The notes: generated by a model not told the origin, from the sequence alone. A stretch of DNA of 23,399 nt from a virus (IMGVR_UViG_3300043313_001192:153598-176996); one strand, 5' to 3'. Positions 5,574 to 22,162 are shown, counted from the first letter of the stretch. A program made the numbers and translations.

Positions 5574-5932
5574 CAGCGTCGCCGCTCCTTGGTCTGGTCC
5601 TGGACCAGGAACGCGCCGTAGCCGGTGAACATCCCGGCCAGCAGGAACAGCGCGATCCCCGCGCGTCGAGTCGGATCGTCGGCGGTGTCGACCAGGTAGA
5701 ACAGCAGCGTCGTGAACCCGGCCCAGCCGACGAGCAGGAAGGCGAACTCCTCACCAGGAACCTTCACGCTCGGCACGCTGTAGATGATCAGGCCGAGTAT
5801 CGCGAGGCCCGCGACAACCACCACGAACCACTCGCCCCATTGGATGGTGTCAGTCGGGTACACGGCGAAGAAGATGATCCCGACGCAGTAGAGGAAGGAC
5901 GCAACCGTCAGCACCGTCCGCCACCTGGTCAT
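5573..5932 (-). CDS. 119-aa four-TM membrane protein (holin-like by topology only)
   Basis: RBS GGGGAG 5 nt before ATG; four hydrophobic segments; charged C-terminus KERRR. Confidence 0.8.
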   Translation of the reverse strand: MTRWRTVLTVASFLYCVGIIFFAVYPTDTIQWGEWFVVVVAGLAILGLIIYSVPSVKVPGEEFAFLLVGWAGFTTLLFYLVDTADDPTRRAGIALFLLAGMFTGYGAFLVQDQTKERRR

Positions 5933-5953: not shown

Positions 5954-8900
5954 CTAGATCAAGAACCGCAGAATGCGCGACAGCTCGGCCGAGATCTGGG
6001 GCTGGGAGAGGACGTCACCTCCGGCCATGAACTCAGAGATCTTGCCCCCGGCTTCGGCTAGATGCTCAGGGTCGAGACGCTGCTCGGCGCGCTTGTACAA
6101 GTCCTGCATCAGGCCCTGGAGGTCGGGGGGCAGGTCGGAGAACTTGTACTTCTCGTTGAGGTCACCGAAGACCAGCGGCAGGTTGGCCACCGCCTCAGCC
6201 AGGTTGCCGTAGCCCTCGCGCAGAGTCTTGACCGCACCCTCGTCCTCGGTGTTCTTCGCGATCTGGTCGACCAGGTCGAGCACACCCTTGGCTGCCTGCT
6301 GGGCGGCCTCGGTGTCACCCTGGTTGGCCGCCTGCTGGACCTCGTCGAGTCCTTCGACCGCTTGCTGGGTCCCGGCCTCACCCTGCAGATCCTTCTTCAG
6401 CTCGGCGATCACCATCCGGAACCGACCCTTCTCATCGCGCGGGTGGTTGCCGGGGTCCCACGGCGAGCCGTCGGGGTAACGGCCACCGGCGGCGAGCAGA
6501 CTGATCCCGTCCAGGGTCTCGTCCGAGGCGCGCAGGATCAGCGGGATGCAGGCCCCACCGGCGATCAGCGCCATCCGTGCGGCGAGATCCTCGACCTCAC
6601 CGGCCACGTCCTGGACCGGGGTGCTCAGCGCGGCCCACGACTCCGGGATCAGGTCGGTCTTGCCGAGCGCGCGGGCGCGCTTCTTGATGTGGCGGCGGAC
6701 CTTGGCCTTGTCGCCCTCCTTGGCCCGGCCGTAGGCACGGATGGCGTTCTTCAGGTCGCCCACCGTGGCGATCGGGTAAGAGCCGTCCGGCAGCGCCTGG
6801 CCCTTCTTGGACATCTCCTTGCGCTTGTCGGTGCCGATGTCGCGGAACAGCTCCTCCCCACCGCTCATCAGTGCTGCCATCCGCTCGCGTGCGGCAGCAG
6901 CCTCCGGCGAGCGCAGCGTGACGAACTTGTTCAGCGCCGCCGCGCGAGCCGCGTCCAGCCGGGCCTGGTACTCCGCACGGACCGGGTCCATCCGGGCCAG
7001 CGCGGCGGCGCGGGCCTGAGACAGTGCTTCGCGCTGCGGGGTCTCCAAGGCGTCGACCCGCTCGATCAACCTGTCCAGCGGCGCCGCGTCGGCATCGCTG
7101 CGGATCCGGGCCAACACCGACGTGCCCGCCGCGACCAACGCGTAGACATGTCCGGAGGCCACCCGAGCACGCACGGTGGGGAAGCCGGGCACGTTGACCT
7201 GGCAGATCGCGACCATCTCCAACCGCCCGTTGATTGGACGCCAGTCTCCGGACGGCGCCGCGGCGCGGACCGCCCGGACCTGCTCGGCGTTGATGCTGGG
7301 GCGCATCGCACCGGCCACCCAGATGCCGTAGGCGTCCTCACCGGCGTGCACGTCGCAGAACGCCGAGGCGGTGTCGTCGTAGTGCTTGACCGCCATCGCC
7401 GCGTCGGACTCCAGCGGAGCGTGTCCACCGGCCAGGGTGATCTGCCCGACCGGGACGTCCTTGCCCTCCTCGGTGCGCAGTAGCCCGGTGTGGAAGTAGG
7501 CGTAGTTCGACCGGCTCCGGGGCGGCCGGGTGGAGAACGGGAGCCCGATGTGCTCGGTGTCCCAGGTCGCCACGTGTCCGTAGACCCGACCGTCGTCGAG
7601 CACGGTCAGCGGCGTCTCCTGCTTCAGTCCCGGATCCTCGAACCACTCCTGGGGCGGGTGAATGGGGATGCCCGCTGCGGTCAACGCCGAGCGAACCATC
7701 TCCTCGGTCTCGGCCTCCGTGACGGGAGTTCCGATGTAGGTTCCGTCGGCAACCATGGGCTCTTCCTCCTCCTGGCCTTCCTCTAGCTCGATGCGTACTT
7801 CCTGGAATGCGGGCTTGGCGACGAGCGTCGCGCCCATCACCCGCCCATTGGTGACAGTCATGTCGTCGGCGACGATCCGCACGATGTCGGGGCTCTCGCC
7901 CTCGCCCGGCTCACGCTCGACCGACTCAGGGCTGCGAGCCTCGGCCTCGAAGTTGTCGAGGTCCACCGAGACGCCGCGCAGGAACTTGTGCCGGACCAGC
8001 CGCTCGGCCTCCTGGCCGTACGGCCCGACGTCGAAGACACCACGGGCGTTGACCAGCGAACCGTCCTCGGAGCGCTCCATCGAGTCGATCCGGCCGACGA
8101 TCACCGAGTCGTCGTGGCCCTCGGCGGTCTTGATCTGCCACATCAGCGGCAGCGGCAGGTCGCGAGTGGTCAGCGAGAGCGGTGCGAAGCTGCGCCCGTC
8201 GCCAGACTTGATCCCGATCGGGGCCAGCACCGGGATCACGAACGGCGAGCCGGACAGCTCGGTGGGGACCTGGTCGGCCCGCTCGGGTGCCTCGACACCG
8301 GCGATCAGCGTGTTCGCACCGGCCAACAGCGCCGAGTAGGCGATCACCTCGTCAGTGCTCAGCAGGTGCACGTCGAAGAGCTGGCTGCGCTCGGACGCCG
8401 AGCCGCGCCGCCCGACGTTGCGCCGGTCACCGGGCCACTCGCCGGTCATCAGGTGGTGCAGGCTGGCGCAGTAGCCCTCGCTCATTCCTGGCTTGGGCAT
8501 GTACTTCTTCAGGTGCCGGTTGCACCGGGTCCAGTCGCCAGGGGTGTTCCAGCGGACCTTGGCGGTACCGCCGGTGCCGACCGTCCAGTACTTCTTCAGC
8601 CGGTCCACGTTGGCGACATCGTTGGGGGTGTCGGCGATGCCGGGGATGCCTGCGGCGAGGATCTCGACGACTTCGCCGTACTCGCCCCAGATGGCGGCGG
8701 CCGACGCGGCCACTGACGCTGCGGCGTCCTTGGCCTCCTGCTCGGCCTCGGCCTTGCCCTCGGGCGTCTGGTAGAACGCCTGCACCTGCGTCATCGTGTC
8801 GTTGAAGGTGGCCTCGTCGAGGGAGACGATCGCGGGTGGTGAGCTGGACTGCAGCTGACGCAGCACCTTGGGATCGTTGACCCAGCCGGTCGCGGTGTAG

Positions 8901-11422
8901 CGCAGCACCTGGGCCTGGTTGCCGGTGGTGCTGGCCGGGATCATCGCCAGCAGCTCCAGCACCGCTTCCTGGTTGGCCTCATCCACCTCGGCCATGTAGA
9001 CCGGCGCGACGTCGGACTGGGCAGGGTCTGTGATGGGCTGACCAGTGCCTCCTGCGTCCGGCAGCACCGGCACCTCGGCCGGTTCGTCCTTCTTCTTCCG
9101 GGCCGCAGCGGTCAGCGAGCCGCGCTTGTAGCCAGGCAGGATCTTGCGGTAGATCCGGTCGATGGCGTCGCGCGCGCTCTTGCCACCGGCATGGATCTTC
9201 TCCAGCCGACGCTTGTAGTCGGCATCGGCCTTGGCCTGCTCACGCTCCCACCGCGCCTTGGACTCCTTGTCGAGCGCCTTCTGGGCCTGGTCACGCGCCT
9301 TCTTCCCGGCGCGCTCTTTCTCGATGAAGTTGGGGTAGTTCGCGATGACCGCCTTGATCGCCTCGGCGTCCATCGGTGGCAGCAGCGACTTCAGCAGCGC
9401 CTTGGGCGTGTGCGCAGTAGCGCGCGGAATGGCCTGGATCTTGTCGAGGTCGACCACACCCGGCTGCACCCTGGTGCTCTTGGCCGGGACCCACTCGGAG
9501 GATCCGTCGTCGTCGTAGGTGACCTGGACCTTCTGGGTGGCCGGGTCGATCTTGGCCACGGTGCCGGTCCGGGCCTGCGGACCGACGGCGATCTTGGAGC
9601 CGGACCTGGCGAACCGGCCGCCAGCGTCACGGACCTGCTTCTTGGCGTTGGCCGCGCGCTCCTCAGGGGTGTAGCCGTCGTCCTCGGCGAAGACCTGGGG
9701 GCGGTAGTCGAAGGTGACCCCGGAGGCGGTGACCACCGCGACCCGGTTCAGCATCTCGTTGTCGAGACCAGGGATGGCCTCGGCCATCACCAGAGCCTCA
9801 CCAGGGTCGACCTCGCGCAGGTCGACCGGCTGGTCGGGAAAGATCGACTGTGCCCGGACCACTTCGCGGGCGGTGTCATCGTCCAGCTCGATGATCTGGG
9901 CAGGGGAGCCGAGGTGGGTCTGCTCCCAGGTTCGGGTGCTCGGCTCGAAGCGGTAGAACATCGCGCCGTCACTGACGTAGAGCTGGTCCACGGTCAGCGA
10001 GTCGTCGCCGGTGTAGGCGGCGTAGTAGGTCAGCGGGTCGTCTTCCTCGGTGCCGCGCCGCTCCCAGAACGCCGTCTTGAGGTCGTCGTCCGCGATCAGC
10101 TCCTCCAGCGGGTCGCTGAGGTCGAACTCCTCCCAGTCGACACCGTGGATCTCAGCTGCTGCCTGGACCGGGGACGGGGGCGCCTCGCCGCCGTCGGCGA
10201 CCTGGGCGTCCCAGTACTGCTTGGTCTCCGCGATCTTGGCGTCGATCTCGGTCTTGTTCGCGTAGTAGTCGGCCAGCGCCGCCTGCTTGTGCAGGGTGTC
10301 GTCGACGGCCTTGCCGCAGATCTCGCACGTGTCCGGGTCATCGACGGTCTCGGAGAAGTAGTGCGCGTCGTCGGGCGTGATGTCGGCCTGGTCGTAGTCG
10401 ACGGCGTCGGGCTGGTGCCGCTCGTCCATCTCGCCGGTGCCGCAGTAGGTGCAGACCTCAGGGTTGCTGGTCACCGGGGAGTACACGTGCGGAGCCTCAC
10501 CGTCGAAGCTCTCTCCCTCGGGAACCTCCTCTTCCTCGACGTCCACGTTGGCGTCGGGGTCGTAGCCCGCGGCGACCAGCGCTTCCGCCTCCACCCGACG
10601 GATGGTCCGGGTGGCCCAGTCACGTCCGGCGTCACCGCCTAGTGCTGAGTAGGTCAGGGCGCGCGCCGAGGGGTACCGAGCCGAGGACTTCGAGCCGCCA
10701 CAGCTGCACGACCCGTTGCCGTCGCACTCGGAGGTGTGCGGGCCGTTGATCACCGAGAACGCGCGTGGCAGCAGCCGCAGCGTGTCGTAGTCGACCTCCT
10801 CGTCCTCGGCCAGCTTCTGCCCGATCGTGGTCGCGGCGGTCGTCGAGTCCTGGGTCTCGGTGGCCTGGGCGACCTTGGCGGCCCAGACCTTCCCGGCGTC
10901 ACCGCCCCAGGAGGCCCAGACCGTGGGGTCGACCTTCTCCTTGGGGTGCCGAGAGAAGTAGGTGTGCATCTGCTGGACGACCTGCGGGTGGATGGCAGCA
11001 CCGCTGGCCAGGTGCTCAGCACGGGCAATGTCGGTGCGGTCGAGGTCAGCCTCGACGCTGCTGCGTGCTGCCTCTCGCACCGTGGCCGGTGGCACCAGGC
11101 TGGTTCCGGCGGCGATCACCGGCAGTTCGATCTCACGCTGGTAGGTGGTGGTCCAGCGCAGTGCCTGTCGGGCGCTGGCCCGGACCGGCTCGGGGACGGT
11201 GAAGGTGCGCAGCGGATCGACGTCGACCGCCAGCGCCGAGCGAGCGAGCAGGGTGGCGCGGCGCTCTTCGGTGCTGCGCCCGGAAGGGACGAAGCCGCCA
11301 TGGCTGGTCAGCTCAGCAGCGCTGAAGACGTCGGTGACGTCACCACTCTTGAGATCGACGGCGACTGCTGACCCGGCGTGCTCGAAGAACATCCAGCCAC
11401 TGCTCGCACCCAGCGTTCGCAT
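5954..11422 (-). CDS. 1822-aa capsid maturation protease polyprotein (two protease-like domains plus accessory modules)
   Basis: Uninterrupted ORF between cargo genes and MCP, carrying GHD/GVSVD/LVAKPAF and GH/SGDWR/VNVPGFP motif sets. Confidence 0.88.
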   Translation of the reverse strand: MRTLGASSGWMFFEHAGSAVAVDLKSGDVTDVFSAAELTSHGGFVPSGRSTEERRATLLARSALAVDVDPLRTFTVPEPVRASARQALRWTTTYQREIELPVIAAGTSLVPPATVREAARSSVEADLDRTDIARAEHLASGAAIHPQVVQQMHTYFSRHPKEKVDPTVWASWGGDAGKVWAAKVAQATETQDSTTAATTIGQKLAEDEEVDYDTLRLLPRAFSVINGPHTSECDGNGSCSCGGSKSSARYPSARALTYSALGGDAGRDWATRTIRRVEAEALVAAGYDPDANVDVEEEEVPEGESFDGEAPHVYSPVTSNPEVCTYCGTGEMDERHQPDAVDYDQADITPDDAHYFSETVDDPDTCEICGKAVDDTLHKQAALADYYANKTEIDAKIAETKQYWDAQVADGGEAPPSPVQAAAEIHGVDWEEFDLSDPLEELIADDDLKTAFWERRGTEEDDPLTYYAAYTGDDSLTVDQLYVSDGAMFYRFEPSTRTWEQTHLGSPAQIIELDDDTAREVVRAQSIFPDQPVDLREVDPGEALVMAEAIPGLDNEMLNRVAVVTASGVTFDYRPQVFAEDDGYTPEERAANAKKQVRDAGGRFARSGSKIAVGPQARTGTVAKIDPATQKVQVTYDDDGSSEWVPAKSTRVQPGVVDLDKIQAIPRATAHTPKALLKSLLPPMDAEAIKAVIANYPNFIEKERAGKKARDQAQKALDKESKARWEREQAKADADYKRRLEKIHAGGKSARDAIDRIYRKILPGYKRGSLTAAARKKKDEPAEVPVLPDAGGTGQPITDPAQSDVAPVYMAEVDEANQEAVLELLAMIPASTTGNQAQVLRYTATGWVNDPKVLRQLQSSSPPAIVSLDEATFNDTMTQVQAFYQTPEGKAEAEQEAKDAAASVAASAAAIWGEYGEVVEILAAGIPGIADTPNDVANVDRLKKYWTVGTGGTAKVRWNTPGDWTRCNRHLKKYMPKPGMSEGYCASLHHLMTGEWPGDRRNVGRRGSASERSQLFDVHLLSTDEVIAYSALLAGANTLIAGVEAPERADQVPTELSGSPFVIPVLAPIGIKSGDGRSFAPLSLTTRDLPLPLMWQIKTAEGHDDSVIVGRIDSMERSEDGSLVNARGVFDVGPYGQEAERLVRHKFLRGVSVDLDNFEAEARSPESVEREPGEGESPDIVRIVADDMTVTNGRVMGATLVAKPAFQEVRIELEEGQEEEEPMVADGTYIGTPVTEAETEEMVRSALTAAGIPIHPPQEWFEDPGLKQETPLTVLDDGRVYGHVATWDTEHIGLPFSTRPPRSRSNYAYFHTGLLRTEEGKDVPVGQITLAGGHAPLESDAAMAVKHYDDTASAFCDVHAGEDAYGIWVAGAMRPSINAEQVRAVRAAAPSGDWRPINGRLEMVAICQVNVPGFPTVRARVASGHVYALVAAGTSVLARIRSDADAAPLDRLIERVDALETPQREALSQARAAALARMDPVRAEYQARLDAARAAALNKFVTLRSPEAAAARERMAALMSGGEELFRDIGTDKRKEMSKKGQALPDGSYPIATVGDLKNAIRAYGRAKEGDKAKVRRHIKKRARALGKTDLIPESWAALSTPVQDVAGEVEDLAARMALIAGGACIPLILRASDETLDGISLLAAGGRYPDGSPWDPGNHPRDEKGRFRMVIAELKKDLQGEAGTQQAVEGLDEVQQAANQGDTEAAQQAAKGVLDLVDQIAKNTEDEGAVKTLREGYGNLAEAVANLPLVFGDLNEKYKFSDLPPDLQGLMQDLYKRAEQRLDPEHLAEAGGKISEFMAGGDVLSQPQISAELSRILRFLI
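6539..6563. repeat. 25-bp direct repeat, copy 2 (in protease polyprotein)
   Basis: 24/25 identical to 4271..4295; encodes AGGACIPL. Confidence 0.9.
7150..7665 (-). other. Second prohead-protease-like domain of the 1822-aa protein (approximate bounds)
   Basis: GHVATWD (His1283, 7574-7576), SGDWR (Ser1391, 7250-7252), closing VNVPGFP analogous to the V..PA motif. Confidence 0.55.
7795..8245 (-). other. HK97/assemblin-fold prohead protease domain of the 1822-aa protein (approximate bounds)
   Basis: LPLM.Q...GHD...VGRI (His1103, 8114-8116), GVSVD (Ser1152, 7967-7969), GATLVAKPAF. Confidence 0.85.
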
Positions 11423-11428
11423 GCCAGC

Positions 11429-11434
11429 AGTTTA
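11429..11434 (-). promoter_or_regulatory. Putative -10 (TAAACT) for a leaderless transcript of the protease polyprotein
   Basis: TAAACT-GCTGGC-ATG: TAnnnT exactly 6 nt before ATG 11422, with no Shine-Dalgarno. Confidence 0.5.
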
Positions 11435-11442
11435 GGTGTACA
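11430..11442. repeat. 13-bp motif, copy 2 (inverted relative to 5402..5414)
   Basis: + strand GTTTAGGTGTACA. Confidence 0.6.
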
Positions 11443-11613
11443 TCAGGCCGAAGGAGCGGGCTCCTTCGGCTCGGTGCCTGCGGTTTCGTCAGTAGGCGCC
11501 GCGGCAGCGCCCGTGGACTCGCCGAAGAACGAGGTCACCTGCCCGGAGACACGGGCGGCGAACTGTTCGGGTGACTCACCAGGCTTCTGCGTCATGGTCA
11601 GCACTTGTGGCAT
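11443..11613 (-). CDS. 56-aa hypothetical protein; start revised to 11613
   Basis: GGAGATTCCTCATG gives MPQVLTMTQKPGESPEQFAARV...; overlaps the upstream gene by 38 nt. Confidence 0.6.
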   Translation of the reverse strand: MPQVLTMTQKPGESPEQFAARVSGQVTSFFGESTGAAAAPTDETAGTEPKEPAPSA

Positions 11614-11893
11614 GAGGAATCTCCAATCCTGCATAGTCGAAGTAGGGCAGCAGGTCATCGAGGAACCGGCCGTACTGGGGGTCGCCGGGCGGGACCACGG
11701 ACAGGTCCCCGACCTTGGCCACCGCGGGCAGCAGGTCGTGCGGCACCCAGGTCAGGTAGATGGTGCCGTCGGTCTCGCGCCACGAGTCCGGCGACGCTCC
11801 GGCCAGATAGGTCAGGTAGGAGGCGTAGCCCTCCTGGGTCAGGTGCTGCGGGCAGGGCAGGTCAGTCCGTGGGGGCGGCGGTGGGTGCGGCAT
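11576..11893 (-). CDS. 105-aa hypothetical protein, paralog of 11862..12242; start revised to 11893
   Basis: GGGAGGTGCCCGATG; 30/80 ungapped identity with the upstream paralog. Confidence 0.8.
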   Translation of the reverse strand: MPHPPPPPRTDLPCPQHLTQEGYASYLTYLAGASPDSWRETDGTIYLTWVPHDLLPAVAKVGDLSVVPPGDPQYGRFLDDLLPYFDYAGLEIPHATSADHDAEAW

Positions 11894-12242
11894 CGGGCAC
11901 CTCCCTGGTCGGGCGTGGCTCGGGTGCCACCGGCGTCGGCTCCATGAAGTCATACTCCGGCACGACGTGGTTCAGCCAGCGCGCGTAGGTCGGGCTGTCC
12001 TGGGTGATGTAGGTGGGTGAGTCCACCATCCCCACGTCGGGCGCCATCGAGGCAGGCATCCGGCTCAGGTAGATCGTCCCGTCCTGGTCACGCCAGGCAT
12101 CGACCGGGTCCGCGGCCAGGAACTCCAGCCATTCGGCGTGCTCCTCCGGGGTCCCACCCTCGGGCGGCTGCAGGTCAGACCGGGGCTTCGGTGGCGGCGG
12201 GATCTTGGTCGGCGGCTGGGGCTGCTGGGGCTGCTCCGTCAT
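11862..12242 (-). CDS. 126-aa hypothetical protein, paralog of 11576..11893
   Basis: GAGGAGGTGCCAGATG; shared PR.DL and D.WR..DGTIYL motifs. Confidence 0.8.
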   Translation of the reverse strand: MTEQPQQPQPPTKIPPPPKPRSDLQPPEGGTPEEHAEWLEFLAADPVDAWRDQDGTIYLSRMPASMAPDVGMVDSPTYITQDSPTYARWLNHVVPEYDFMEPTPVAPEPRPTREVPDAAPTAAPTD

Positions 12243-12405
12243 CTGGCACCTCCTCGGTACTCACGACTGCGCTGGGGAACATGGCGCGCCATTCCTCGGG
12301 CGTCATCCTGATCTTGTCGAACGCCGGGTCGTTGGGCGGGTTGCCCTCGTAGTTCAGCATCATCAAGAACTCGACCGCAGTCAGCGACTCCACATCGACA
12401 GCCAT
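12175..12405 (-). CDS. 76-aa hypothetical protein; ATG at 12405
   Basis: TGATG overlap with the giant-gene stop; GGAG/GAGG upstream; overlaps the next gene by 68 nt. Confidence 0.6.
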   Translation of the reverse strand: MAVDVESLTAVEFLMMLNYEGNPPNDPAFDKIRMTPEEWRAMFPSAVVSTEEVPDDGAAPAAPAADQDPAATEAPV

Positions 12406-15400: not shown

Positions 15401-18400
15401 CACCGAGGATCTGGTTGATGTCACCGCTGGCCAGATCCGGGTCCACCTGGGCGTCGAAGTTGGCCCACAGATCGAGCACGTCCTGGACGGCCTCGTCGTT
15501 GTAGCGACCCAGCACCGTGCTGACGTGCTCGGGTGTGAGCTGGTCGAAGCCGCCACGCCTCATCGAGAACATCATCCGGGTCTCGTCGGCGAACTTCGTC
15601 TCGGCTTCCAGCAACCGGTTGTTGAGCAGCTGGTCAGCGATGCTGCCCTTCTCGACGTTCTTGGAGAGCTTCTCGTTGATCTGGTGCAGCGACTCGAAGT
15701 AGTCGGTGATGGCCTGACTGCGCTTGTCCTGGAACTCGGGGCTGACTACCAGGTCGCGGATGGCAGCGGGGTCGGAGGCACTGAGGCGAAAGGGCGCGTC
15801 GCCACCACCTGCCTCTCCAGGGGTCTCACCCTGTGACGGGCCTTGCCCGCCGTCCAGCTCGTCAGCCACTCGACGCAGTTCGTCGACGGCCGAGCTGGGA
15901 TCGCTGAGTCCGAAGTTGCCTTCGAGGTAGTCGGCCAGCCTGCGCAGATCCTCCGACAGCTCGGTGTAGGGACCCTCGCTGGTGATCCGGCCGCGGATCA
16001 GGCCGAGCTGGGCGTTGGCCTCGTCGGTCAGCTCGGTCCAGCCGACCGGGCCGTTGTCGCCCTCGGTCTCGTTCTCGGTCTCGATCGCGCTCTCCACGTC
16101 GGAGAGAGCGCTCTGGACCTCGGCTACTTGGGCGGCTTCTGGCCCGCTGCCTGCTGGCCCTTCGGGCGCTTGCTCTTCGGGAGGAACACCGGGTTCGGCT
16201 TCTCCACCTTCCGGGCTTGGGCTCTCCAGTCGCCTGGCCCCCGGAACTCCTTCTTCTGGTCCTGTGCCACCGGCTTGCTCCTCTGCCACGTGTGGGGGCC
16301 AGTATCCCAGCCCGTCCTTGAAGTTGTACGCGCCACCCTCGGATCCGGAGTACGCACCGACCGCCTCGACGTCGTCGAGGTTGTCGAAGACCAGCACCGG
16401 GTCGATCTCGTAGTTGCCGGTGTCGTCGTTGCGGAACACGCCGAGGTGGGCCTGCTCCGCCCACAGGGGGCTGTCCTCGTCGGCGCCGAACTGGGCCAGC
16501 GCCTGCTCCATGCCAGCGTCGAAGTCCTCCTGGCTGGACCCGATCGGGACATTGACGGTGTCAGTACCGGGCGGGCGGAAGGTGATCGCGTAGGCGTCCT
16601 CGTCGCCGGTGATCGCCTGCCCGGTGTGGGCGTCGATGGTGACGCCGCCCCACTCCTCCTGGACCGAGTCCCAGGCGGTGCTCTTGACCTCGTCCCAGGT
16701 CTGGCCCTGCAGCGCGTCGGGTGCTGCGGTGTTCTCCAGGATGCCGTCCAACCGGTCGCGGCCCTTGAGCGCCAGCGCGGTGTACTCCTCCGGGGAGACC
16801 TCGCGGGTACGCGGGGTCTCGGGGTTGGAGAACTGGCTCGGGGTGAGCGGCTCCACCTCGGGCATCCCGGCAGCGTCCAGTGCCTCACGCGCGGTGCCCG
16901 CTCCCTGCTGCGGAGCCTCCGCGACGGCAGGAGCCTGCTCGGGTGCTCCCTCGGGAGCCGTGGCCGGACCGGTGACACCACCCATGGCGTCGAGCCGGTC
17001 GGCGTGCTCGCGGGCTCGGGCGGAGGGAGCGTCGGTGGGTGTGTCGGCCCCGTCGTAGGCGTCCGCGGCGTCGCGGAACTTCTGCGCCGCGGCGGCGTTG
17101 TCGCCGTTCTTGATGTCGGCGCGGGCGCCGTCGACCAGGCTGCGGACCTCGTCGCTGCGGGACAGACCGCTCAGGAGGTTGCCGACGTCACTGGTCCGGC
17201 GGAGCGCAGTGTTCTGGCTGGAGTAGCCGCGCGCGCCCTCTTCCCCGGCGGCGCGTGCGAGTCGGTGCGCCATCTGGCTGGCGACACCCTTGTCCGAAGG
17301 CTTCTCGAACTGGTCTGCTCCCAGGCCATCGACGTGGTCCGCCAGCCGTGAGGCGTCCGCACCATTGATCTCCTCGCCGTTCTTGACCGCCTCGGTGATC
17401 CGGCTGATCTCCGGGTCGGCCCCTTCGACTCCCGCCACGTGGTCGAGCATCTTCTTCTGCTTCGACGTCGAGCGGGCAGCGACCCTGCCGGTCCCGGCAG
17501 TGCGGACTGCGCGCTCCTCGGAGCGGGGGTCCTCGACCGCCTCGGCGGGCATGTCCTTGTCACTGTCGAGCGCGACGTTCATCATCGCGCCGTCGGCGAC
17601 GTTCACGTACTGGTTGGTGCCTGCGGTCCTCGCCGCGTCGCTGGCGTCCTGCTCCTCGTCGAAGACACCGACCCGCGCCATCCGGTAGCGGCCGTCGTCC
17701 TCGTCGTGCCAGATCGAGACGCCGTCGAAGCTGCTGCCCTCGGTCTCGGCCAGGAAGTCGGTGATCTCCTCGGCAGTGGGCTCGGCGTCATACTCCGAGA
17801 CGGTGGCGTGGTCCACCACGTAGAAGCCCTCGTCCACCTGCTGGTCACCCTGCATCACCAGCGCCGAGCCGTCATCAGCCTGGACCGCATCGGAGACCGC
17901 GTCGTCGACCTTGTCGACCACCGGGTCCACACCTTCCGGCGTCACGTCCGGAGCGCCCTCGGGACGCTCCTGGCGGGAGACCGGCTGCGACGCGCCACCG
18001 AAGAGGTCAGTGCCCGCGTCGACCTTGGCCTGCAGCACCTGCAGCAACGGTGGCCTGTTCTGGCCACGCCCACCCTGGGGGTTGATGCCGGTGAGCATCG
18101 CGTGCAGCTTGCTGCCCTTCAGGTTCGCGTTGACGTTGGTGTTGACGACCCTGGACAGCTCGCCCACCGCGCTGAGCAGTGCCTGGGCGTCCTCGGCCTC
18201 TACTGCGGCGGTGACACCGTCCAGGTACTTGCGCAGCTGCCTGCGCTGGGTGGGGTCCTTGGCCGCAGCCATCGCCTCCTCGCCGAACCCCTGCAGGATC
18301 TTGTTCATCTGCTGTGCTTCGGACACCGCGGCAGGCGTCTCTTCAGGCGGCACCTCAGCCCCCTGCTCCGGGCCGGTCCCGGTCTCCTGAACGGCCTGCT

Positions 18401-20576
18401 CGACGGCCTGGGTGTCGTTGGAGGGGATCGGGTCCTCGGTGTTGTCGTTGACGATGGTCTGGCCGTCCTCCTCACGGACGGTGGCTCCCTCGGGCGTGAT
18501 CTTCTCGCTCGGATTGTCCGGGTTCTGCGGTGCCTCGCCGCCCATCTCCGGATCCGGTGTGGGTGCCTCGGGCGGCTCGGGTGCCGGGTCGCTGGGCTCG
18601 CGGAAGTACCCGGCCGAGGCCATGAACAGCTGGTCCCGCTTGTCCAGCAGGTCCTGGTCCTCGGCACTGAGTTCCTGCCCGGCGGCCCTGGTCTGGTCGC
18701 GCTTGTTGTAGAGCGCGTCGATGTCGAACAGCTGGTCCTGGAAGGCGGCGTCGGTGGACATCGCGGCCTGGATGGCGTTCGCGTCGCCGTCGTCGCGGAT
18801 CACCTGGGAGACCGAGGTGGCGCCCATCTCATCGGTGAGCAGGGCGGCCTGCTCGCGGGTCGGCACGTAGTTGTTGGTGTTGGACTCCGACTCACCGGGA
18901 TAGACCTCGCTGGTCGGGCCGTGGTGACGCCTCAGCTTGTTCGCGGTGACGCGGGAGGACTTGCCGTTGTACCAGTACACCTTGGTGGTGTTCGCGTTCG
19001 GCTCCATGTAGGAGATGTAGCCCTCTTCGCCGTTGGGTCCCTGCACGGCGTCGCCGATCCCCAGCCTCTGGCCGTTGGCGTCCTTCTTCTGGCGCAGGTG
19101 GATGGGGACGACGTCGAAGAGCCCGGCCCCGCCACCGGTCCGCGAGCGCCTCAGCGCTCCTGGGGTGGCGTACCGCTCGCGCACGGCGGTGATGTACTCC
19201 TCGGTGAACGACTTCACCAAGGACTTGCTGGCCTCGTCCTGCCCCTCCAGCGCGAGCCGCTGGAACAGTGTGCTCTGCTGGTCCTCGCTGGCCATCTCGA
19301 TCGACTTGGCGTCCACCGGATGGTCGTAGTAGGGGACCGGGACCTTGCTCTTGGTCCCGTCGGCGTTCTTGACGGTCTTGGTGTAACCCTTCTCCATCAG
19401 CGGGTCGAGGTCGCGGACGTAGATGTGCTTCTTCTGGGCGCTGTCGGTGTAGAGACGGACGATCGGACCGGTGAACGCGGCCCGTCCCCTCTTGGTCGCG
19501 TCGACGTCCACGATGTGGCCGACCCGGACCACGGTCTCCCCGGTCTTGTCGACGTGGTGTCGGTCACCGGGAGCGACCTGCTGGGCCTGCTTGGAGCCGA
19601 CCAGTCGATCCCGTGCAGCGCCGAGCTTCGCGTAGGCCGAGCGCCAGTACTCGGGCAGCCCTTCGGTCTGGGGCTCGGCGACGGTGTCGCGGACCTCGGC
19701 CTTGACCGGCTGCTCCAGCTGGCCCTCGACCAGCGAGCCGGAGGTGATGTCCCAGACCTTGGCGTCCTCGGCGTAGCTCTTGGCCAGCTCGTTCTGCGCC
19801 GCCTCCTCACGGACCTCGGGCTGGTTGCCCTGCATCCGCCCCTGACTGGTCTCGATGTCCTCGACGGTCTTGTCCCCGAGGGAGTGCCGGGCGGTGTAGC
19901 TGTTCTTGATGACGTCGTCGAGGTTCGCCAGCCGGGTGGCCTCCTCCTTGGGCAGGTTGGCCTTGGCCTCCTCGTAGTCCTCACCGTCGGCGAACCCCTT
20001 GCCGCGCTCGTCCCCGACTGCCTCGCCGACCTCGCGGAACAGGTCGATCGCCTTCTGCTTGTCGGCGACCGACTTCGGGTCGCGCGGGTTGGGCGGCAGC
20101 ATCGCCAGCCGCTGGGCCTCGGCCATCTTCTTGGCCTCTTTGCCCATGCCCATCTTCTTCAGGGAGTTGATGGCGGTGGTGACACCGACGTTCTCCTGGT
20201 TCTGCAAGATGCCGACGTGGCTGCCCTTGCCCGCGAGCTGAGCCTTGACGGTGCGGACCTGGACCTTGTCGTGGGGCACCTTGACGTAGCCGTTCGCGTC
20301 GACCCGTGGGTCAGCACCAGGGGTGGTGCCTTGGATCTTGACCAGCAGGTTGCCGTCCCGGTCGATGCCCGCGACCCGGCCCGACGCAGTCCCGCCACCG
20401 GGCAGGTCGAAGGTGACGAAGGAGAAGGTCCGGATGAACCGCCCGTTCTCGTCGCGGGGGTGCTTGAGCGGGTTCCACTTCCGGCCCATGGAGTCGATGA
20501 CGACGATGAACTCGTCGCGGTGCCCCAGGTTCATGAACTCGGTGTTGGCGTACCGAAAGATCTGCGGGGTGGTCAT
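12405..20576 (-). CDS. 2723-aa polyvalent protein: HPRD-GRF/SH3-like N-terminus, repeated alpha/beta domain, HEXXH zincin, C-terminal topoisomerase IB-like domain
   Basis: 8.2-kb uninterrupted ORF; ATGA overlap upstream and TGATG overlap downstream; recognisable catalytic motifs. Confidence 0.9.
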   Translation of the reverse strand: MTTPQIFRYANTEFMNLGHRDEFIVVIDSMGRKWNPLKHPRDENGRFIRTFSFVTFDLPGGGTASGRVAGIDRDGNLLVKIQGTTPGADPRVDANGYVKVPHDKVQVRTVKAQLAGKGSHVGILQNQENVGVTTAINSLKKMGMGKEAKKMAEAQRLAMLPPNPRDPKSVADKQKAIDLFREVGEAVGDERGKGFADGEDYEEAKANLPKEEATRLANLDDVIKNSYTARHSLGDKTVEDIETSQGRMQGNQPEVREEAAQNELAKSYAEDAKVWDITSGSLVEGQLEQPVKAEVRDTVAEPQTEGLPEYWRSAYAKLGAARDRLVGSKQAQQVAPGDRHHVDKTGETVVRVGHIVDVDATKRGRAAFTGPIVRLYTDSAQKKHIYVRDLDPLMEKGYTKTVKNADGTKSKVPVPYYDHPVDAKSIEMASEDQQSTLFQRLALEGQDEASKSLVKSFTEEYITAVRERYATPGALRRSRTGGGAGLFDVVPIHLRQKKDANGQRLGIGDAVQGPNGEEGYISYMEPNANTTKVYWYNGKSSRVTANKLRRHHGPTSEVYPGESESNTNNYVPTREQAALLTDEMGATSVSQVIRDDGDANAIQAAMSTDAAFQDQLFDIDALYNKRDQTRAAGQELSAEDQDLLDKRDQLFMASAGYFREPSDPAPEPPEAPTPDPEMGGEAPQNPDNPSEKITPEGATVREEDGQTIVNDNTEDPIPSNDTQAVEQAVQETGTGPEQGAEVPPEETPAAVSEAQQMNKILQGFGEEAMAAAKDPTQRRQLRKYLDGVTAAVEAEDAQALLSAVGELSRVVNTNVNANLKGSKLHAMLTGINPQGGRGQNRPPLLQVLQAKVDAGTDLFGGASQPVSRQERPEGAPDVTPEGVDPVVDKVDDAVSDAVQADDGSALVMQGDQQVDEGFYVVDHATVSEYDAEPTAEEITDFLAETEGSSFDGVSIWHDEDDGRYRMARVGVFDEEQDASDAARTAGTNQYVNVADGAMMNVALDSDKDMPAEAVEDPRSEERAVRTAGTGRVAARSTSKQKKMLDHVAGVEGADPEISRITEAVKNGEEINGADASRLADHVDGLGADQFEKPSDKGVASQMAHRLARAAGEEGARGYSSQNTALRRTSDVGNLLSGLSRSDEVRSLVDGARADIKNGDNAAAAQKFRDAADAYDGADTPTDAPSARAREHADRLDAMGGVTGPATAPEGAPEQAPAVAEAPQQGAGTAREALDAAGMPEVEPLTPSQFSNPETPRTREVSPEEYTALALKGRDRLDGILENTAAPDALQGQTWDEVKSTAWDSVQEEWGGVTIDAHTGQAITGDEDAYAITFRPPGTDTVNVPIGSSQEDFDAGMEQALAQFGADEDSPLWAEQAHLGVFRNDDTGNYEIDPVLVFDNLDDVEAVGAYSGSEGGAYNFKDGLGYWPPHVAEEQAGGTGPEEGVPGARRLESPSPEGGEAEPGVPPEEQAPEGPAGSGPEAAQVAEVQSALSDVESAIETENETEGDNGPVGWTELTDEANAQLGLIRGRITSEGPYTELSEDLRRLADYLEGNFGLSDPSSAVDELRRVADELDGGQGPSQGETPGEAGGGDAPFRLSASDPAAIRDLVVSPEFQDKRSQAITDYFESLHQINEKLSKNVEKGSIADQLLNNRLLEAETKFADETRMMFSMRRGGFDQLTPEHVSTVLGRYNDEAVQDVLDLWANFDAQVDPDLASGDINQILGEQVVSAASEGKAEVDKLYASDWLSTPMERAGSAKIQGSNLERAMRPGNTIENTDEFIDMMPEVASTAEHAMSLRDPEVRSKMHDFEVVAATESARRLTDDITAAKTMFDQLRSAGLDPAPLEDVLREQLDKHEMGDLLSMDAYPPVEMRQKADKSMMDFRLVQDTGKPAEKESIALVDQIALQLANSSSAAGHGVYAHIVNQAAEYQRAHGGVSPALADAIRAASDQDRFGFLNSTLTDLDLDEAVKNGDAELVSDLTGGKKTLLTWDGENTLSSNLTVDDRTGEGTDQTVVADMAFNEGVSEITPNVAAALNSMYAAYGGGIHRTRSNVTEASTNYASIVTSPDWVNPPHDGADDRTPEQTTGHYIPHENNVVVADSTFQWGDGVTNVVSHELGHALDSMIGEVSVSQGRRGFYSDGDPEFLALRAKLQEIASYGDAPDATLLNWYYRNQDEGATTHNGAAGTTEMWAQGYAAYAAMRRMLAEPEEGRDGENWKQSVYTKGGSALLHGHWGPARADGITLREMGDRKTEAGQAIFEFFDNFENHTLPEMMKSPVVVKKRVPVQNQISSALGAPAPKQEQPLPNVVQIERASKHKSEAHGQLDMTEIRPGDQNWDSVMAAMKEANPDFTGPSKDAIGVWYNRNWASQDGTLLMKVIMPGNDTPTNIYDYKHSKTGNAQKFQREKALHKVHADLREKALNEAMDDPVAALVATLIETGMRVDNAKGKNRTKSQKRKKLEQVIGGTSLMPKHLRFNQNSVRFDFMGKSGIDNDYTIKEPRLQAALEKWSKGKGRNEFIFGDVTADQSINYLRESTGIPDLINHDLRTYVATNAARQFLGTLVAYKKKSSKGTRPVRPKKGMSQAEFDKFKISVWKAAGQRINDGWGTARDHYVSPSVWWDLENELDLPHSFDELVEYTGVPEHPGPTLPPAPAAPIAAAADVVDETEPDLVSRPEQIDYSAEAVRERDEFYDSFEWAGVSPEAPPPPLPPGAIPPGDEDE
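12690..13560 (-). other. Type IB DNA topoisomerase-like domain (approximate bounds)
   Basis: VW...Y...H....KFQR leader; TGMRVDN (R2444, 13245-13247); FDFMGKSG (K2490, 13107-13109); HDLRTYVAT (R2549, 12930-12932); ARDHYVSP (Y2615, 12732-12734). Confidence 0.82.
13900..14450 (-). other. Zincin metallopeptidase domain, lethal-factor/Pro-Pro-endopeptidase-like (approximate bounds)
   Basis: G.Y......VVV...HELGHALD (aa 2117-2121, 14214-14228), SDGDPEF, and TEMWAQGYAAY (Glu2191, 14004-14006). Confidence 0.78.
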
Positions 20577-22162
20577 GGCAGCAGGTCCCGGTCGTCGGTG
20601 CGCGCGGAGAGGTCGCCCTGGGCCAGCCGGATCAGGCTGTTCACCCGCGCCTGGGCGATCAGGTCGCGCGGCAAGGGTGGGCGGCTCTGCGGCGCGGTCA
20701 TGGTGTACTCCCTGACCCCGCGCACATAGGCCGCGCGCAGGGCGGTGTCGGAGATGGTGGAGAGCTGGGTCTTGAGGGCGAAGAGGTCCGGAACGTCATT
20801 GCCGTTCTGGGCTGGGACCGCAGTGACGTCTTGAGCTGGCGCAGCTGCCTGAGCTGCCTGCGCAGCTGTGGCCGATGTCGACTGACGCAGCCAGTGCTGC
20901 GGGATCATGTGCTGCAGGCTCAGCTCGCGGGCGCGCTTGGCCAGCCGACGCCGGGTGAAGACCCGCGACAACTCGGCTTCGATCTGGTCGGCGGCCTCGC
21001 AGGCGGTGGCCAGCGACTCAGCATCGTCGACGGCGAGCCGAGGCGCGGTGCCGAAGACGTCGATGAGCAGGTGGTCGCCCTCCAGCGGAGGGTCCTCGAT
21101 CGCCTCGGTCATCGCCTTGGTGAGTGCGGCCACAAACTCCGCGTCGAGTCCCATGTCATCGCCGGTGAGCAGGTTGGGCTCGGTACCAGACGCTGGCCCA
21201 GTCACCAGGTAGCCGAAGTGCGCGGAACCATCGCCGTTGAGCTCGATTATCGGAGCGTCGGCGTCGTCGGTCGCGTGAGACATGATCGAAGCGTCGGAGT
21301 CGATGTTCGCGTGGGACCGTGCCTTCTTCTCCTCCCACTCAGCTACCGCGGCGCACGCTTTGGCTCGTGATCCCGCGTTCTCGTGCTGAACGCCAGGGAA
21401 GTTCAGGTCACCGGTCGCGCACGCCTTCTTCACGGCGTTGACTGCCGTGGCGATCGCGTGTCCTTGCTTCATGCCCTTCTCTTGGAGGTGCTTGGCGATC
21501 CGCTTGATGTACTTGGGCAGACCGCCGACCTTCTCGACCCAGTTGAACTCGTTGTCGTCGATGGCCATGACGTCAGAGAACTCGACGTCGGGAAGGTCTT
21601 CGTCCGAGTCAGGACCCTCGGGGATGGTCGACTCGGCGGACGGTCCGAGCGGGTACTCGGTGTGCTCCTCACCGTCCCAGACCGCGAGTCGGTCGAAGAT
21701 GACCTCCTCGGGGAGGTCGTCGTCGGGGACCGGCTCCTCCAGGTCGTAGCCGAGGGTGACGTGCGGGGTGTAGCCGGGGAACTGCTGGACGGCCCCGGTG
21801 CCCTCGCGCAACTCCGGGGCCGCCAGCAGGTTCTCGCGGAGGGCAGGCAGCTCGTCACCGCCGAGGTGCACCACCTGGGCGTTCTCGTCGCCGAGCAGCC
21901 CCTGGGACTCGACCTGGCTGGTGACCGGCCCCGTGCTGCTCTCCGCTACGCCGCGCACTGCGTCCTGGACCGCCTCCATGTCCAGAGCCGGGTTCTCCTC
22001 AGGCTTGCCCAGCCAGAGCACCGTGGCGTGCTTGGGCTCGGAGACGTCCCCGATGTGGTGGATCGGCTCGGTGGCGGTGGGGATCGCCACGATGCAGCGC
22101 CCGGAGTTCTTGCGCTCCTCGAAGTCGTCGGGCTCATCAGGAGTGATCGGGATCTCGGTCAT
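20573..22162 (-). CDS. 529-aa protein: N-terminal 2H phosphoesterase (LigT/Acb1-like) plus two small helical modules
   Basis: HxT motifs HATV (22022-22030) and PHVTL (21755-21763); ATGA overlaps at both ends. Confidence 0.85.
   Translation of the reverse strand: MTEIPITPDEPDDFEERKNSGRCIVAIPTATEPIHHIGDVSEPKHATVLWLGKPEENPALDMEAVQDAVRGVAESSTGPVTSQVESQGLLGDENAQVVHLGGDELPALRENLLAAPELREGTGAVQQFPGYTPHVTLGYDLEEPVPDDDLPEEVIFDRLAVWDGEEHTEYPLGPSAESTIPEGPDSDEDLPDVEFSDVMAIDDNEFNWVEKVGGLPKYIKRIAKHLQEKGMKQGHAIATAVNAVKKACATGDLNFPGVQHENAGSRAKACAAVAEWEEKKARSHANIDSDASIMSHATDDADAPIIELNGDGSAHFGYLVTGPASGTEPNLLTGDDMGLDAEFVAALTKAMTEAIEDPPLEGDHLLIDVFGTAPRLAVDDAESLATACEAADQIEAELSRVFTRRRLAKRARELSLQHMIPQHWLRQSTSATAAQAAQAAAPAQDVTAVPAQNGNDVPDLFALKTQLSTISDTALRAAYVRGVREYTMTAPQSRPPLPRDLIAQARVNSLIRLAQGDLSARTDDRDLLP

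Follow-up and report, generated by a model that had tools for sequence, protein, structure and literature searches.

We analysed a 23,399-nucleotide stretch of DNA (the window) from the complete 177-kb (176,996-bp) genome of an uncultured phage. The phage is of the siphovirus type and related to large Microbacterium, Arthrobacter and Gordonia phages, and its hosts are high-GC Gram-positive bacteria; a literature search for this lineage found no paper. The window holds a head-morphogenesis operon, encoded throughout the module on the minus strand:

22159..23397, minus strand: portal protein, C-terminal 412 aa, the N-terminus lying beyond the contig end (phrog_776 portal, 3e-71)
20573..22162, minus strand: 529-aa protein with a predicted 2H phosphoesterase domain (about residues 20-175, nt 21638-22105) and a 350-aa C-terminal part
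12405..20576, minus strand: 2723-aa polyvalent protein, comprising a tag module, a stretch of about 2000 aa, a zincin and a topoisomerase IB
11443..12408, minus strand: four small ORFs (77, 126, 125 and 71 aa)
5954..11422, minus strand: 1822-aa protease-scaffold polyprotein
5573..5932, minus strand: 119-aa protein, predicted to be a four-pass membrane protein, between polyprotein and major capsid protein (MCP)
3272..5320, minus strand: MCP, 682 aa, with a long N-terminal scaffold/delta region (phrog_777, 2e-81)

The portal gene ends at 22159 and the MCP gene starts at 5320, so that 16.8 kb separate the two, in agreement with the roughly 16 kb given by an initial annotation of this DNA. Reading frames overlap by 4 nucleotides at the portal/529-aa, 529-aa/2723-aa and 2723-aa/77-aa borders, and a scan of the module interior for promoter and terminator signals gave none above chance; together with the gene order, this ties the genes to portal and MCP. 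The synteny search that the initial annotation had proposed recovered the same order (portal, tagged giant, protease polyprotein, MCP) in all loci inspected, namely DSL-LC01, Microbacterium phage A3Wally, Gordonia phage GodonK and the loci L005, L007, L009, L012 and L013. In every one the giants are encoded between portal and MCP, in relatives down to 38% identity and with changing cargo, and they are non-homologous outside the tag. The portal of L013 is 53% identical to that of the window, L009 contains the same small-gene set (in which the 126-aa and 125-aa products are paralogs of each other), and L005 has an ortholog of the 119-aa membrane protein. GodonK carries a metallophosphoesterase gene before its MCP gene, an unrelated head-operon insert like the four-pass protein of the window.

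Enzymatic domains and the N-terminal tag of the giant proteins

A 2H phosphoesterase, a zincin and a topoisomerase IB-like domain had been read in the interval, and all three were found by motifs and by Pfam, PHROG or PDB profile matches. The 2H profile match is marginal, since the isolated domain reaches 27.7 bits with Pfam 2_5_RNA_ligase2 (PF13563; cut-off 27) and the whole 529-aa protein 26.4 bits. Both H-x-T motifs were found (HATV at residue 45, HVTL at residue 134), and two such H-x-T/S motifs plus a profile match, here a marginal one, are what places a predicted domain in the 2H superfamily. The protein also gave an Acb1 match (1.7e-4). Homologs of the 2H domain lie inside the 'capsid maturation protease' genes of 132 cultured actinophages. 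A motif scan of the 529-aa sequence found neither the tag nor an AAG-type site (both described below), so that packaging is suggested only by where its gene lies and by the fusions seen in other phages.

The features of the 2723-aa protein are as follows:

20241..20522, minus strand: tag module, residues 19-112 (HPRDENGRF, nt 20436-20462, then a Tudor/SH3-like barrel)
13959..14342, minus strand: zincin-like metallopeptidase domain (phrog_4415 'peptidase', 7e-9)
14205-14228, minus strand: zincin motif HELGHALD, residue 2117
13986-14009, minus strand: candidate third zincin ligand, in TEMWAQGY
12702..13376, minus strand: type IB topoisomerase catalytic domain, residues 2401-2625, with GMRV, FMGKSG, HDLRTY and INDGWGTARDHY (Pfam PF01028, 6e-14)

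The HExxH of the zincin, with a D at +3, agrees with the phage-type MPTase (PMC5512222); Pfam MPTase-PolyVal (PF18818) gave no match to this domain, and another tag carrier scores 3.6e-45 with the same family. The topoisomerase domain scores 52.3 bits with PF01028 against a curated cut-off of 23.7, and its profile matched archaeal, Leishmania, Deinococcus and poxvirus enzymes in the PDB (6z01, 1e-11; 2f4q, 1e-7; variola 2h7f, 1.5e-4). In the HMMER alignment, the Lys of FMGKSG and the Arg of HDLRTY match FVGKD and DLRTY of variola; the candidate first Arg (GMRV) and the candidate Asn and Tyr (INDGWGTARDHY) lie outside this alignment and were placed by eye. Topoisomerase IB is nearly absent among 50,697 phage records. 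Judged by its sequence, the 2723-aa protein combines several unrelated enzymatic domains (zincin and topoisomerase IB), as polyvalent proteins do. In close relatives the tag is 73-86% identical and the cargo is exchanged after residue 1022, with NUDIX in place of zincin and topoisomerase IB. A protein of 300 kDa in the head would compete with DNA for space, which would limit its copy number.

The HPRDxxGRF motif reported for both giants is indeed confined to them. A six-frame translation of the 176,996-bp genome contains exactly two copies of HPR[D]xxG[RK]F, one per giant, and three of the looser RDxxGRF, all inside the giants. The motif belongs to a module of about 90 aa, consisting of a basic stretch, RDxxGR[FW] and, according to the structural model, a Tudor/SH3-like barrel (AF2 core pLDDT about 80; Foldseek matches to Tudor, Sm and BPL_C). 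Searches of Pfam and PHROG returned no family for this previously unnamed module, which is new here. Its profile matched 557 protein clusters (50% identity), 181 of them at E<=1e-10; the carriers are 76-7004 aa long (median 2156 aa), with the module starting at about residue 10-30 or 165-200. Fifteen diverse carriers contain UvrD, RNase_T, PI3_PI4_kinase, MPTase-PolyVal, ArdcN, ADPrib_exo_Tox, Tc-38, 2H and GNAT domains, a predicted cargo that is the polyvalent-protein repertoire of Iyer et al. The description of the giants as tagged is borne out by these hundreds of relatives, in which a conserved module forms the N-terminal part of huge proteins whose cargo is not homologous, an arrangement that calls for a shared partner. 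We consider loading into the capsid through this shared N-terminal tag the most likely fate of the giants.

The protease-scaffold polyprotein and its AAG-type sites

The 1822-aa polyprotein contains AAG-type sites at residues 102, 282, 564, (770), 921, (1032), 1247, 1429, 1619 and 1642. Its domains, and the candidate cleavage sites of the MCP (a slash marks the junction), are:

9458..9655, minus strand: second copy of the tag module, residues 590-655 (VRDAGGRF, nt 9611-9634, then the barrel), aligned with the giants' tags and kept in all orthologs examined
8402..8647, minus strand: conserved 'YWxxGxGG...W' domain (phrog_6439, 1e-25), with the AAG site at residue 921 ahead of it
7778..8230, minus strand: protease domain 1, residues 1065-1215, a putative assemblin/HK97 (S78)-type prohead serine protease (AF2 and Foldseek)
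7124..7669, minus strand: protease domain 2, residues 1252-1433, a putative actinophage 'capsid maturation protease' domain (phrog_18402, 3e-57) flanked by the AAG sites 1247 and 1429
5957..6484, minus strand: C-terminal fragment, residues 1647-1822, with a third motif (HPRDEKGRF, nt 6419-6445) followed by a conserved helical domain
4514-4540, minus strand: candidate MCP cleavage site ITAG/ADIPG (MCP ortholog alignment)
4262-4303, minus strand: candidate MCP cleavage site ITAAAG/ACIPLE (MCP ortholog alignment)

Two protease domains had been proposed in this protein. Structure prediction, suggested in the initial annotation for parsing the domains, gave domain 1 an assemblin fold (AF2 pLDDT about 88), with herpesvirus assemblins as top Foldseek matches (probability 1.0) and T4 gp21 at rank 48. 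H1103 and S1152 are invariant in an alignment of 32 sequences, and they were tentatively equated with the catalytic pair on sequence context rather than by superposition. The model supports an assemblin-type protease built into the 1822-aa protein. A search of this protein with PF04586 gave no match at E<=1, and we therefore file domain 1 as assemblin-fold and S78-like rather than as a proven member; the family is present, as a precomputed match, in P0103, a 57%-identical homolog. For domain 2 the proposal holds as far as homology goes: it is a putative protease by its similarity to the 'capsid maturation protease' of cultured actinophages, and its homolog is the only protease-annotated domain in the head module of Gordonia phage Fireball (gp17). 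Its fold and catalytic residues did not emerge, the AF2 model having a pLDDT of about 35 and a PDB search finding no relative. The YW domain occurs also in the protease genes of Fireball and Phinky. The C-terminal fragment has 41 invariant columns among orthologs that are 36-97% identical, its HPRDEKGRF stands 20 residues downstream of AAG site 1642, and its helical domain is a candidate scaffold. One relative's polyprotein contains a ferritin domain, which we note as a curiosity.

The 1822-aa protein had further been described as punctuated by motifs resembling the scaffold junction of the MCP, and the statistics bear this out: [LIVM][LIVMT]A[AGS]G occurs eight times where shuffled sequences give 0.26 (about 30-fold enrichment; 0/3000 shuffles reach 8). 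Over the 3664 aa of its neighbours (the portal, the 529-aa and the 2723-aa protein), whose composition is the same, there is no copy. The sites fall at the domain borders of the polyprotein, their positions are kept in orthologs of different GC content, and related sites (ITAG/A and ITAAAG/A) are found in the MCP of the window, the equivalent site being LVAAG/G in the MCPs of Fireball, Phinky and GodonK. These data support AAG-type sites as the predicted borders of both the polyprotein domains and the MCP scaffold junction.

The further proposal that the protease cuts the cargo into units found no such backing. With no AAG-type site in the 2723-aa and 529-aa proteins, nothing indicates that they are cut in this way, and in the giants of relatives the interiors are near chance, with essentially one site, about 20 residues upstream of the tag. 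About half of the relatives have this site ahead of the tag; its absence from the 2723-aa protein means that the tag of this protein may behave differently.

Comparison with known systems

Giant multi-enzyme polyvalent proteins, packaged and injected and encoded beside portal and head genes, were predicted by Iyer, Burroughs, Anand, de Souza and Aravind in 2017, with zincin, 2H and a C-terminal assemblin-like peptidase among their domains (PMC5512222). The window resembles these in its giant multi-enzyme proteins near portal and head genes, its zincin, a candidate for the MPTase type (HExxH with D at +3), the linkage of 2H to head proteins and the assemblin-like peptidase (C-terminal in some polyvalent proteins), and the cargo repertoire equals that of the tag carriers. 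The giant of the window also lies among the virion genes of a portal-terminase phage, as polyvalent proteins do. It differs in its head link, which is a MuF or portal domain in polyvalent proteins and here a module outside the Pfam and PHROG families; in its topoisomerase IB, which is not among the domains of PMC5512222 (the word stands in the reference list only); and in its zincin, which falls short of the hub domain MPTase-PolyVal.

The combination had been called unrecognised from characterised phages, a view that does not hold: beyond the 2017 prediction and the 132 cultured phages, portal-MuF/2H/protease-MCP loci are common in sequenced actinophages. In Microbacterium phage Phinky, gp29 fuses MuF, 2H and both protease domains. 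This 'capsid maturation protease and MuF-like fusion protein' (Phinky gp29; Gordonia phages Fireball gp15-18 and Tiamoceli gp16-18) shares with the window 2H, protease domains 1 and 2, the YW domain and AAG-type sites, and these phages likewise have an MCP with an LxAAG/G junction. There, a single protein of about 1000 aa unites all parts with MuF, and the usual cargo is an ADP-ribosyltransferase, whereas here they are spread over 16.8 kb, with RD-tagged giants and no MuF (Phage_Mu_F, PF04233, matched none of the module proteins).

In T4, internal proteins enter the prohead by an N-terminal signal, are cut at a short consensus by the assemblin-fold gp21 and are injected with the DNA. Our scheme shares the N-terminal signal, the protease fold, the short consensus and, as proposed here, injection. 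The T4 signal, however, is a peptide of about 10 aa that is cut off, and that of the window is a folded domain of about 90 aa downstream of a putative cut; with the AAG site of the relatives upstream of the tag, the tag would stay on the cargo. The giant of the window, unlike T4 internal proteins, has no cut site. This absence and the position of the relatives' site speak against a removable targeting sequence of the T4 type. In the giant phages phiKZ, 201phi2-1 and SPN3US, ejection or inner-body proteins are reported to be processed by the prohead protease (PMC7411985, PMC5694885). Comparably to our proposal, many large head proteins there carry a short motif at which the protease cleaves them, and a bulk of the protein enters the cell by ejection. 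These phages are of an unrelated lineage (myoviruses of Proteobacteria) and have no tag in common with the window. Their prohead protease motif is S/A/G-X-E, which differs from the AAG type.

Poxviruses carry a type IB topoisomerase in the virus particle and use it on entry. By Pfam and PDB profile, its catalytic domain is of the same family as that of the window; the poxvirus enzyme is a free 314-aa protein, and that of the window is the C-terminus of a 2723-aa protein that would be packaged. Encapsulins are also comparable, in that a short conserved tag brings enzymes into an HK97-fold shell. That tag is C-terminal, a peptide that attaches to the shell protein, and it has no similarity to the RDxxGR[FW] module.

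Proposed loading route and alternative explanations

From the domain identities, motif statistics, conservation, synteny and N-terminal position of the tag on variable polyvalent-type cargo, we infer docking, AAG-site cleavage, packaging, ejection and intracellular roles, in the following way. Portal, 2H protein, 2723-aa protein, 1822-aa polyprotein and MCP would be produced together late in infection. The tag of about 90 aa, internal in the polyprotein and N-terminal in the cargo giant, would attach its carrier to some component of the prohead during assembly. The built-in protease would cut after h-h-A-[AGS]-G, freeing the polyprotein domains and removing the MCP scaffold region; the 2723-aa protein, having no such site, would remain whole or be processed by its own zincin. 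Cargo retained in the head with the DNA would be ejected into the host, where topoisomerase IB, zincin and 2H phosphoesterase may act ahead of phage gene expression; examples of targets would be DNA topology or end-joining, host proteins and defence signals of the cyclic or 2'-5' nucleotide type. Taken as a whole, this is our best explanation, and we lean slightly towards its being correct.

The giants could instead be prohead-internal assembly proteins rather than delivered effectors. The tag would then be a scaffold-core element or a docking exosite for the protease, and the giants would be degraded and expelled before or during DNA packaging, or be kept bound in the head with the topoisomerase acting on DNA as it is packaged. 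The presence of the same module inside the protease-scaffold polyprotein fits this reading, as does the tendency of Sm/Tudor-like barrels to oligomerise. The RD motif is fixed 20 residues downstream of an AAG site in many giants and in the polyprotein (1642/1662), a spacing expected of a protease exosite, but an RD motif is missing downstream of the majority of AAG sites. Several of the cargo domains (ArdC-N, ADP-ribosyltransferase toxin, UvrD, RNase T) have a meaningful role only within the host cytoplasm, and the free exchange of cargo among close relatives is atypical of assembly proteins. We regard this explanation as unlikely.

The 2H protein, the 2723-aa protein and the N-terminal part of the polyprotein may, in another reading, be passengers of a late operon, that is, cytoplasmic enzymes for DNA processing before packaging, RNA repair or removal of defence signals, absent from the virion. 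Packaging is, after all, deduced; the 529-aa protein is untagged; and the four-pass protein (5573-5932) and the GodonK metallophosphoesterase exemplify unrelated inserts in phage head operons. Against this, the portal-MCP position persists to 38% identity despite the changing cargo, the N-terminal module common to non-homologous giants calls for a common partner, and cultured phages have 2H in covalent fusion with MuF and protease. We give the passenger reading a low probability. A chance or compositional origin of the motifs, conceivable because the genome has 67% GC, Ala and Gly are abundant and AAG-like strings are short, is refuted by the shuffle statistics and the zero count in the neighbouring proteins, by the conservation of AAG positions in orthologs differing in GC content and by the genome-wide count, which finds the RD motif in no other open frame.

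The loading of tagged giants has a broader form, which we advance tentatively and hold to be somewhat less probable than its opposite. The RDxxGR[FW] and Tudor/SH3-like module might be a widespread, undescribed capsid-loading domain (at least 557 clusters at 50% identity) through which large actinophage-type siphoviruses load and deliver effector polyproteins; these would be freely exchangeable, reach about 7000 aa and include a type IB topoisomerase. Together with a simple h-h-A-A-G code at which the actinophage capsid maturation protease would cleave, it would amount to a programmable protein-delivery system in cultured, tractable phages (A3Wally, GodonK).

The general principle of packaged, proteolytically matured effector proteins is already known. 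If the module is a head-loading domain, it would give a sequence handle to the packaged effectors of a large, mostly uncultured phage lineage, among them anti-defence enzymes such as ArdC-N, 2H phosphoesterases, ADP-ribosyltransferases and nucleases, and would explain the 10-17 kb of 'dark' coding sequence kept between portal and capsid genes. Tag and cleavage code may also offer a route for loading foreign proteins into the capsids of laboratory actinophages. A virion-borne topoisomerase IB, if confirmed, would be a bacterial-virus parallel to the poxviruses.

Genes between the portal and the capsid protein

The window forms the final 23.4 kb of a complete virus record of 176,996 bp with direct terminal repeats, has a GC content of 64-70% and carries all genes of interest on its minus strand. 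The portal protein (phrog_776, 3e-71) and the major capsid protein (MCP; phrog_777, 2e-81) were identified with PHROG, and the end of the portal gene (22159) is separated from the start of the MCP gene (5320) by 16.8 kb, which include two giants, a polyvalent protein of 2723 aa and a protease-scaffold polyprotein of 1822 aa. ORFs overlap by 4 nt at each of the portal/529-aa, 529-aa/2723-aa and 2723-aa/77-aa junctions, and inside the module no signal for a promoter or a terminator exceeded the chance level; the genes from portal to MCP look like one late transcription unit. In its MCP and protease this phage is closest, among cultured phages, to large siphoviruses of Actinomycetota, on which no paper was found in the literature.

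Relatives by MCP and protease similarity
Cultured: Microbacterium phages A3Wally, Big4 and Zooman (~190 kb)
Cultured: Arthrobacter phages Mimi, Racecar and Atuin
Cultured: Gordonia phages GodonK, Phendrix and Sixama
Metagenomic: Actinomycetia phage DSL-LC01

The 529-aa protein contains a 2H phosphoesterase domain (Pfam, 27.7 bits against a cut-off of 27) in which the two H-x-T motifs are present, and no family was found for its C-terminal 350 aa (20573-21620). Within this part, the NWVEKVGGLPKYIKRIAKHL region weakly resembles the YW domain of the polyprotein (YWxxGxGG...W, phrog_6439); with E = 0.04 in one comparison of the C-terminus of this protein (P0002), the resemblance was judged too weak to rely on. 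Between the giants, two adjacent ORFs of 125 and 126 aa (11576-11953 and 11862-12242) encode paralogous products whose N-terminus is proline-rich and which have a DxWR(D/E)xDGTIYL core in common, and for which there was no family match; the same small-gene set is carried by L009, a relative's locus. Between the polyprotein and MCP genes, an odd location for such a product, lies an ORF (5573-5932) for a 119-aa protein predicted to cross the membrane four times; it has an ortholog in L005, another relative's locus.

The N-terminal module and its cargo

HPRDxxGRF occurs twice in the six-frame translation of the genome, once in each giant, and the shorter RDxxGRF three times, always within the giants. 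The positional counterparts of the 2723-aa protein (proteins of 3289 and 466 aa in DSL-LC01, gp85 of A3Wally and a 1855-aa protein of the related locus L007) align with it only at RDxxG(R/K)(F/W) and the ensuing beta-rich segment; in direct BLASTP against the DSL-LC01 and A3Wally counterparts, this tag alone aligned. No family in Pfam or PHROG matched the RD module. Its AF2 model (103-row alignment) is a five-stranded small barrel with a core pLDDT of ~80, the nearest solved folds being Tudor, Sm and BPL_C, and its best matches in BFVD were large uncharacterised proteins of the Gordonia phages Sixama and GodonK. GodonK gp67 (1479 aa) immediately follows the portal and begins ...LTAAF...HPRGADGRW.

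A profile built from 12 tag segments (alignment A3) matched 557 of 1.84 billion cluster representatives at E<=1e-3, 181 of them at E<=1e-10. Among the 135 carriers examined of the 150 best-scoring matches listed, the module starts at or before residue 60 in 73, at residues 150-230 in 54 and elsewhere in 8, and the carriers have a median length of 2156 aa, the longest being 7004 aa. Domains found in 15 diverse carriers were UvrD helicase (4), RNase_T (3) and PI3_PI4_kinase (3), with MPTase-PolyVal, ArdcN, ADPrib_exo_Tox, Tc-38, 2H, KTSC, WYL and GNAT in addition. Judged by such predicted domains, tag carriers bear the cargo repertoire that Iyer et al. 2017 (PMC5512222) gave for polyvalent proteins. 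Two distant carriers with UvrD cargo, in L012 (3359 aa) and L013 (4706 aa), were looked up for synteny, and each had a portal homolog on one side and homologs of the polyprotein and MCP on the other.

In the window's 2723-aa protein, HELGHALD (phrog_4415 'peptidase', 7e-9) fits 'HExxH with Asp at +3', the form given for phage polyvalent proteins (Iyer et al. 2017, PMC5512222). Its C-terminus is a type IB topoisomerase domain (Pfam, 52 bits against a cut-off of 23.7), the profile of which matched 6z01 (1e-11), Deinococcus TopIB (1e-7) and the variola enzyme (1.5e-4) in the PDB; the catalytic Lys and second Arg were aligned by HMMER, and the first Arg, Asn and Tyr were placed by eye. This domain is nearly absent from 50,697 phage records, in which tblastn with the full 2723-aa protein found nothing at 1e-5. 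Pfam and PHROG scans of segments of the giants gave no new assignment for ~2000 aa of this protein or for polyprotein residues 1-900, and ESM Atlas searches with two segments, whose scores were all <0.9, were not used.

Proteins with tags 73-86% identical to that of the window carry differing cargo. The metagenomic protein P0011 shares only residues 1-1022 with the window protein (63% identity), followed by 1700 unrelated residues including NUDIX, and the point of divergence marks a clean cargo-swap breakpoint. Four relatives within the same range of tag identity end near residue 1600.

In L009 and in the contig of the protein P0009, the giant is split at a point matching 15735-15836 of the window (residues ~1581-1614 of the 2723-aa protein; L009:14660-14890). 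The first ORF ends ...SATW before its stop codon and the conserved peptide goes on in the -1 frame, whose open stretch starts two codons ahead of C_CCT_TTC, a canonical heptamer of the X_XXY_YYZ form; this heptamer is also present in the window, which nevertheless reads through in a single frame. Sequencing error is less likely because the two contigs agree, and the split is a candidate programmed -1 frameshift that would give short and long (zincin-TopoIB) forms in these relatives.

Protease domains and candidate cleavage sites

The two-domain protease core of the 1822-aa polyprotein (residues 1065-1433) has >1895 homologs, which are mostly stand-alone proteins of ~520 aa. Domain 1 folds confidently in the model, with herpesvirus assemblins and T4 gp21 among its structural matches. 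Domain 2 is the domain annotated as 'capsid maturation protease' in cultured Gordonia phages, whose head module has no other protease-annotated domain. Its AF2 model was unusable (pLDDT ~35), hhalign gave no match to domain 1 and its profile had no match in the PDB, so that the description of the core as two proteases derives solely from homology to annotated phage proteases.

The motif [LIVM][LIVMT]A[AGS]G (AAG site), a candidate cut site, occurs 8 times in the polyprotein (0.26 expected from shuffled sequences; a count of 8 was reached in none of 3000 shuffles) and 0 times in the 2723-aa, 529-aa and portal proteins. Site positions are conserved in alignment with orthologs of 38-86% identity and differing GC, the conserved sites lying ahead of the YW domain, on both flanks of each protease domain and ahead of the C-terminal domain. 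At the end of their N-terminal scaffold region, MCPs of the family have in common VAITAG-ADIPG and (A/I)(L/T)(V/A)A(S/A)G-G (hyphens marking the junction). The second site is also present in the MCPs of Fireball, Phinky and GodonK, in whose proteases domain 2 is flanked by LVAAG-type sites. No published cleavage site was found in the literature for the actinophage capsid maturation protease family; N-terminal data from cluster J were rejected as evidence on this point, as they concern an unrelated MCP.

A G-ACIPL-x-(I/L)-R peptide stands right after an AAG site in both the MCP (4262-4303) and the polyprotein (6530-6568), with ~25/26 bases identical. Among the sequences compared, it was present only in this phage and the 86%-identical L005, in both genes of each; this pattern points to a recent copying event, or to gene conversion, involving the MCP junction and the polyprotein.

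The conserved N-terminal domain of the polyprotein holds a Cys-rich insertion (residues ~225-375, ~10300-10750; CDGNGSCSCGG, CTYCGTGE, CEICGKAV), seen only in this phage and L005, that looks like zinc-ribbon pairs. The Cys-rich insert of the L007 polyprotein is a different one, and the YW domain is duplicated there. In L013, the C-terminal half of the polyprotein contains a Pfam Ferritin domain (L013:20469-23354), which recalls encapsulin cargo, and GodonK gp75, a 'metallophosphoesterase', is encoded immediately upstream of the MCP (L015:15259-16404).

Proposed processing and delivery of the giants

The initial annotation had proposed that the built-in protease cuts the loaded proteins into units. 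This is supported only for the polyprotein itself and the MCP, and is without motif evidence for the cargo, the processing enzyme of which is more likely, by analogy, to be its own zincin. Self-processing by a zincin was proposed for the polyvalent-protein class (Iyer et al. 2017, PMC5512222). In the giants' interiors the cut motif is no more frequent than chance predicts. Roughly half of the carriers have the site h-h-A-[AGS]-x ahead of the RD motif, at a distance of 18-30 residues (mode 20), the consensus being ALVAAxxGGNSxAARSARAKLQWRDRYGRW; the last site of the polyprotein has the same 20-residue spacing (LLAAG at 1642, RD at 1662), and the window's 2723-aa protein has no such site anywhere. 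Wherever a cut is predicted, it precedes the tag, which would thus stay on the product.

This fixed spacing is the best argument for taking the RD module as an assembly or protease-docking element of giants that are not delivered; we consider this unlikely, the best counter-argument being the host-directed cargo repertoire. Ranked second, and somewhat less probable still, is that the giants are not packaged at all. That the motifs arose by chance comes last and is refuted by the six-frame motif count, the conserved ortholog positions and the shuffle statistics: the motifs first noted are real, with HPRDxxGRF confined to the giants and AAG sites at 8 versus 0.26. Our preferred reading is that the giants are packaged, and their delivery with the DNA is what we infer, by analogy and in view of the kinds of cargo domain present.

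Packaged, protease-matured effector proteins are known in principle from T4, phiKZ-like phages, P1 and N4. The principle is also found in the polyvalent-protein survey (Iyer et al. 2017, PMC5512222), and the Microbacterium podovirus Burro has a virion protein of >4400 aa (PMC7302621), a parallel to the giants rather than a relative. The combination of genes, which the initial annotation had not recognised, has precedents: in 132 cultured actinophages, homologs of the 2H domain form part of genes annotated as 'capsid maturation protease'. Phinky gp29 (1052 aa) fuses MuF, 2H, domain 1, the YW domain and domain 2 in a single protein; compared with it, the window locus is an unbundled, expanded version from which MuF is absent and in which it is the RD module that stands at the N-terminus of the cargo. 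The core proposal, that tagged giants belong to a head module which includes its own protease, was supported and gained strength from the comparative data. Four elements appear to be new: a defined, widespread, unannotated N-terminal module on these giants; a candidate cleavage code, simple and conserved, for the capsid protease of actinophages; topoisomerase IB as putative cargo; and lineage-wide cargo swapping behind a constant tag.
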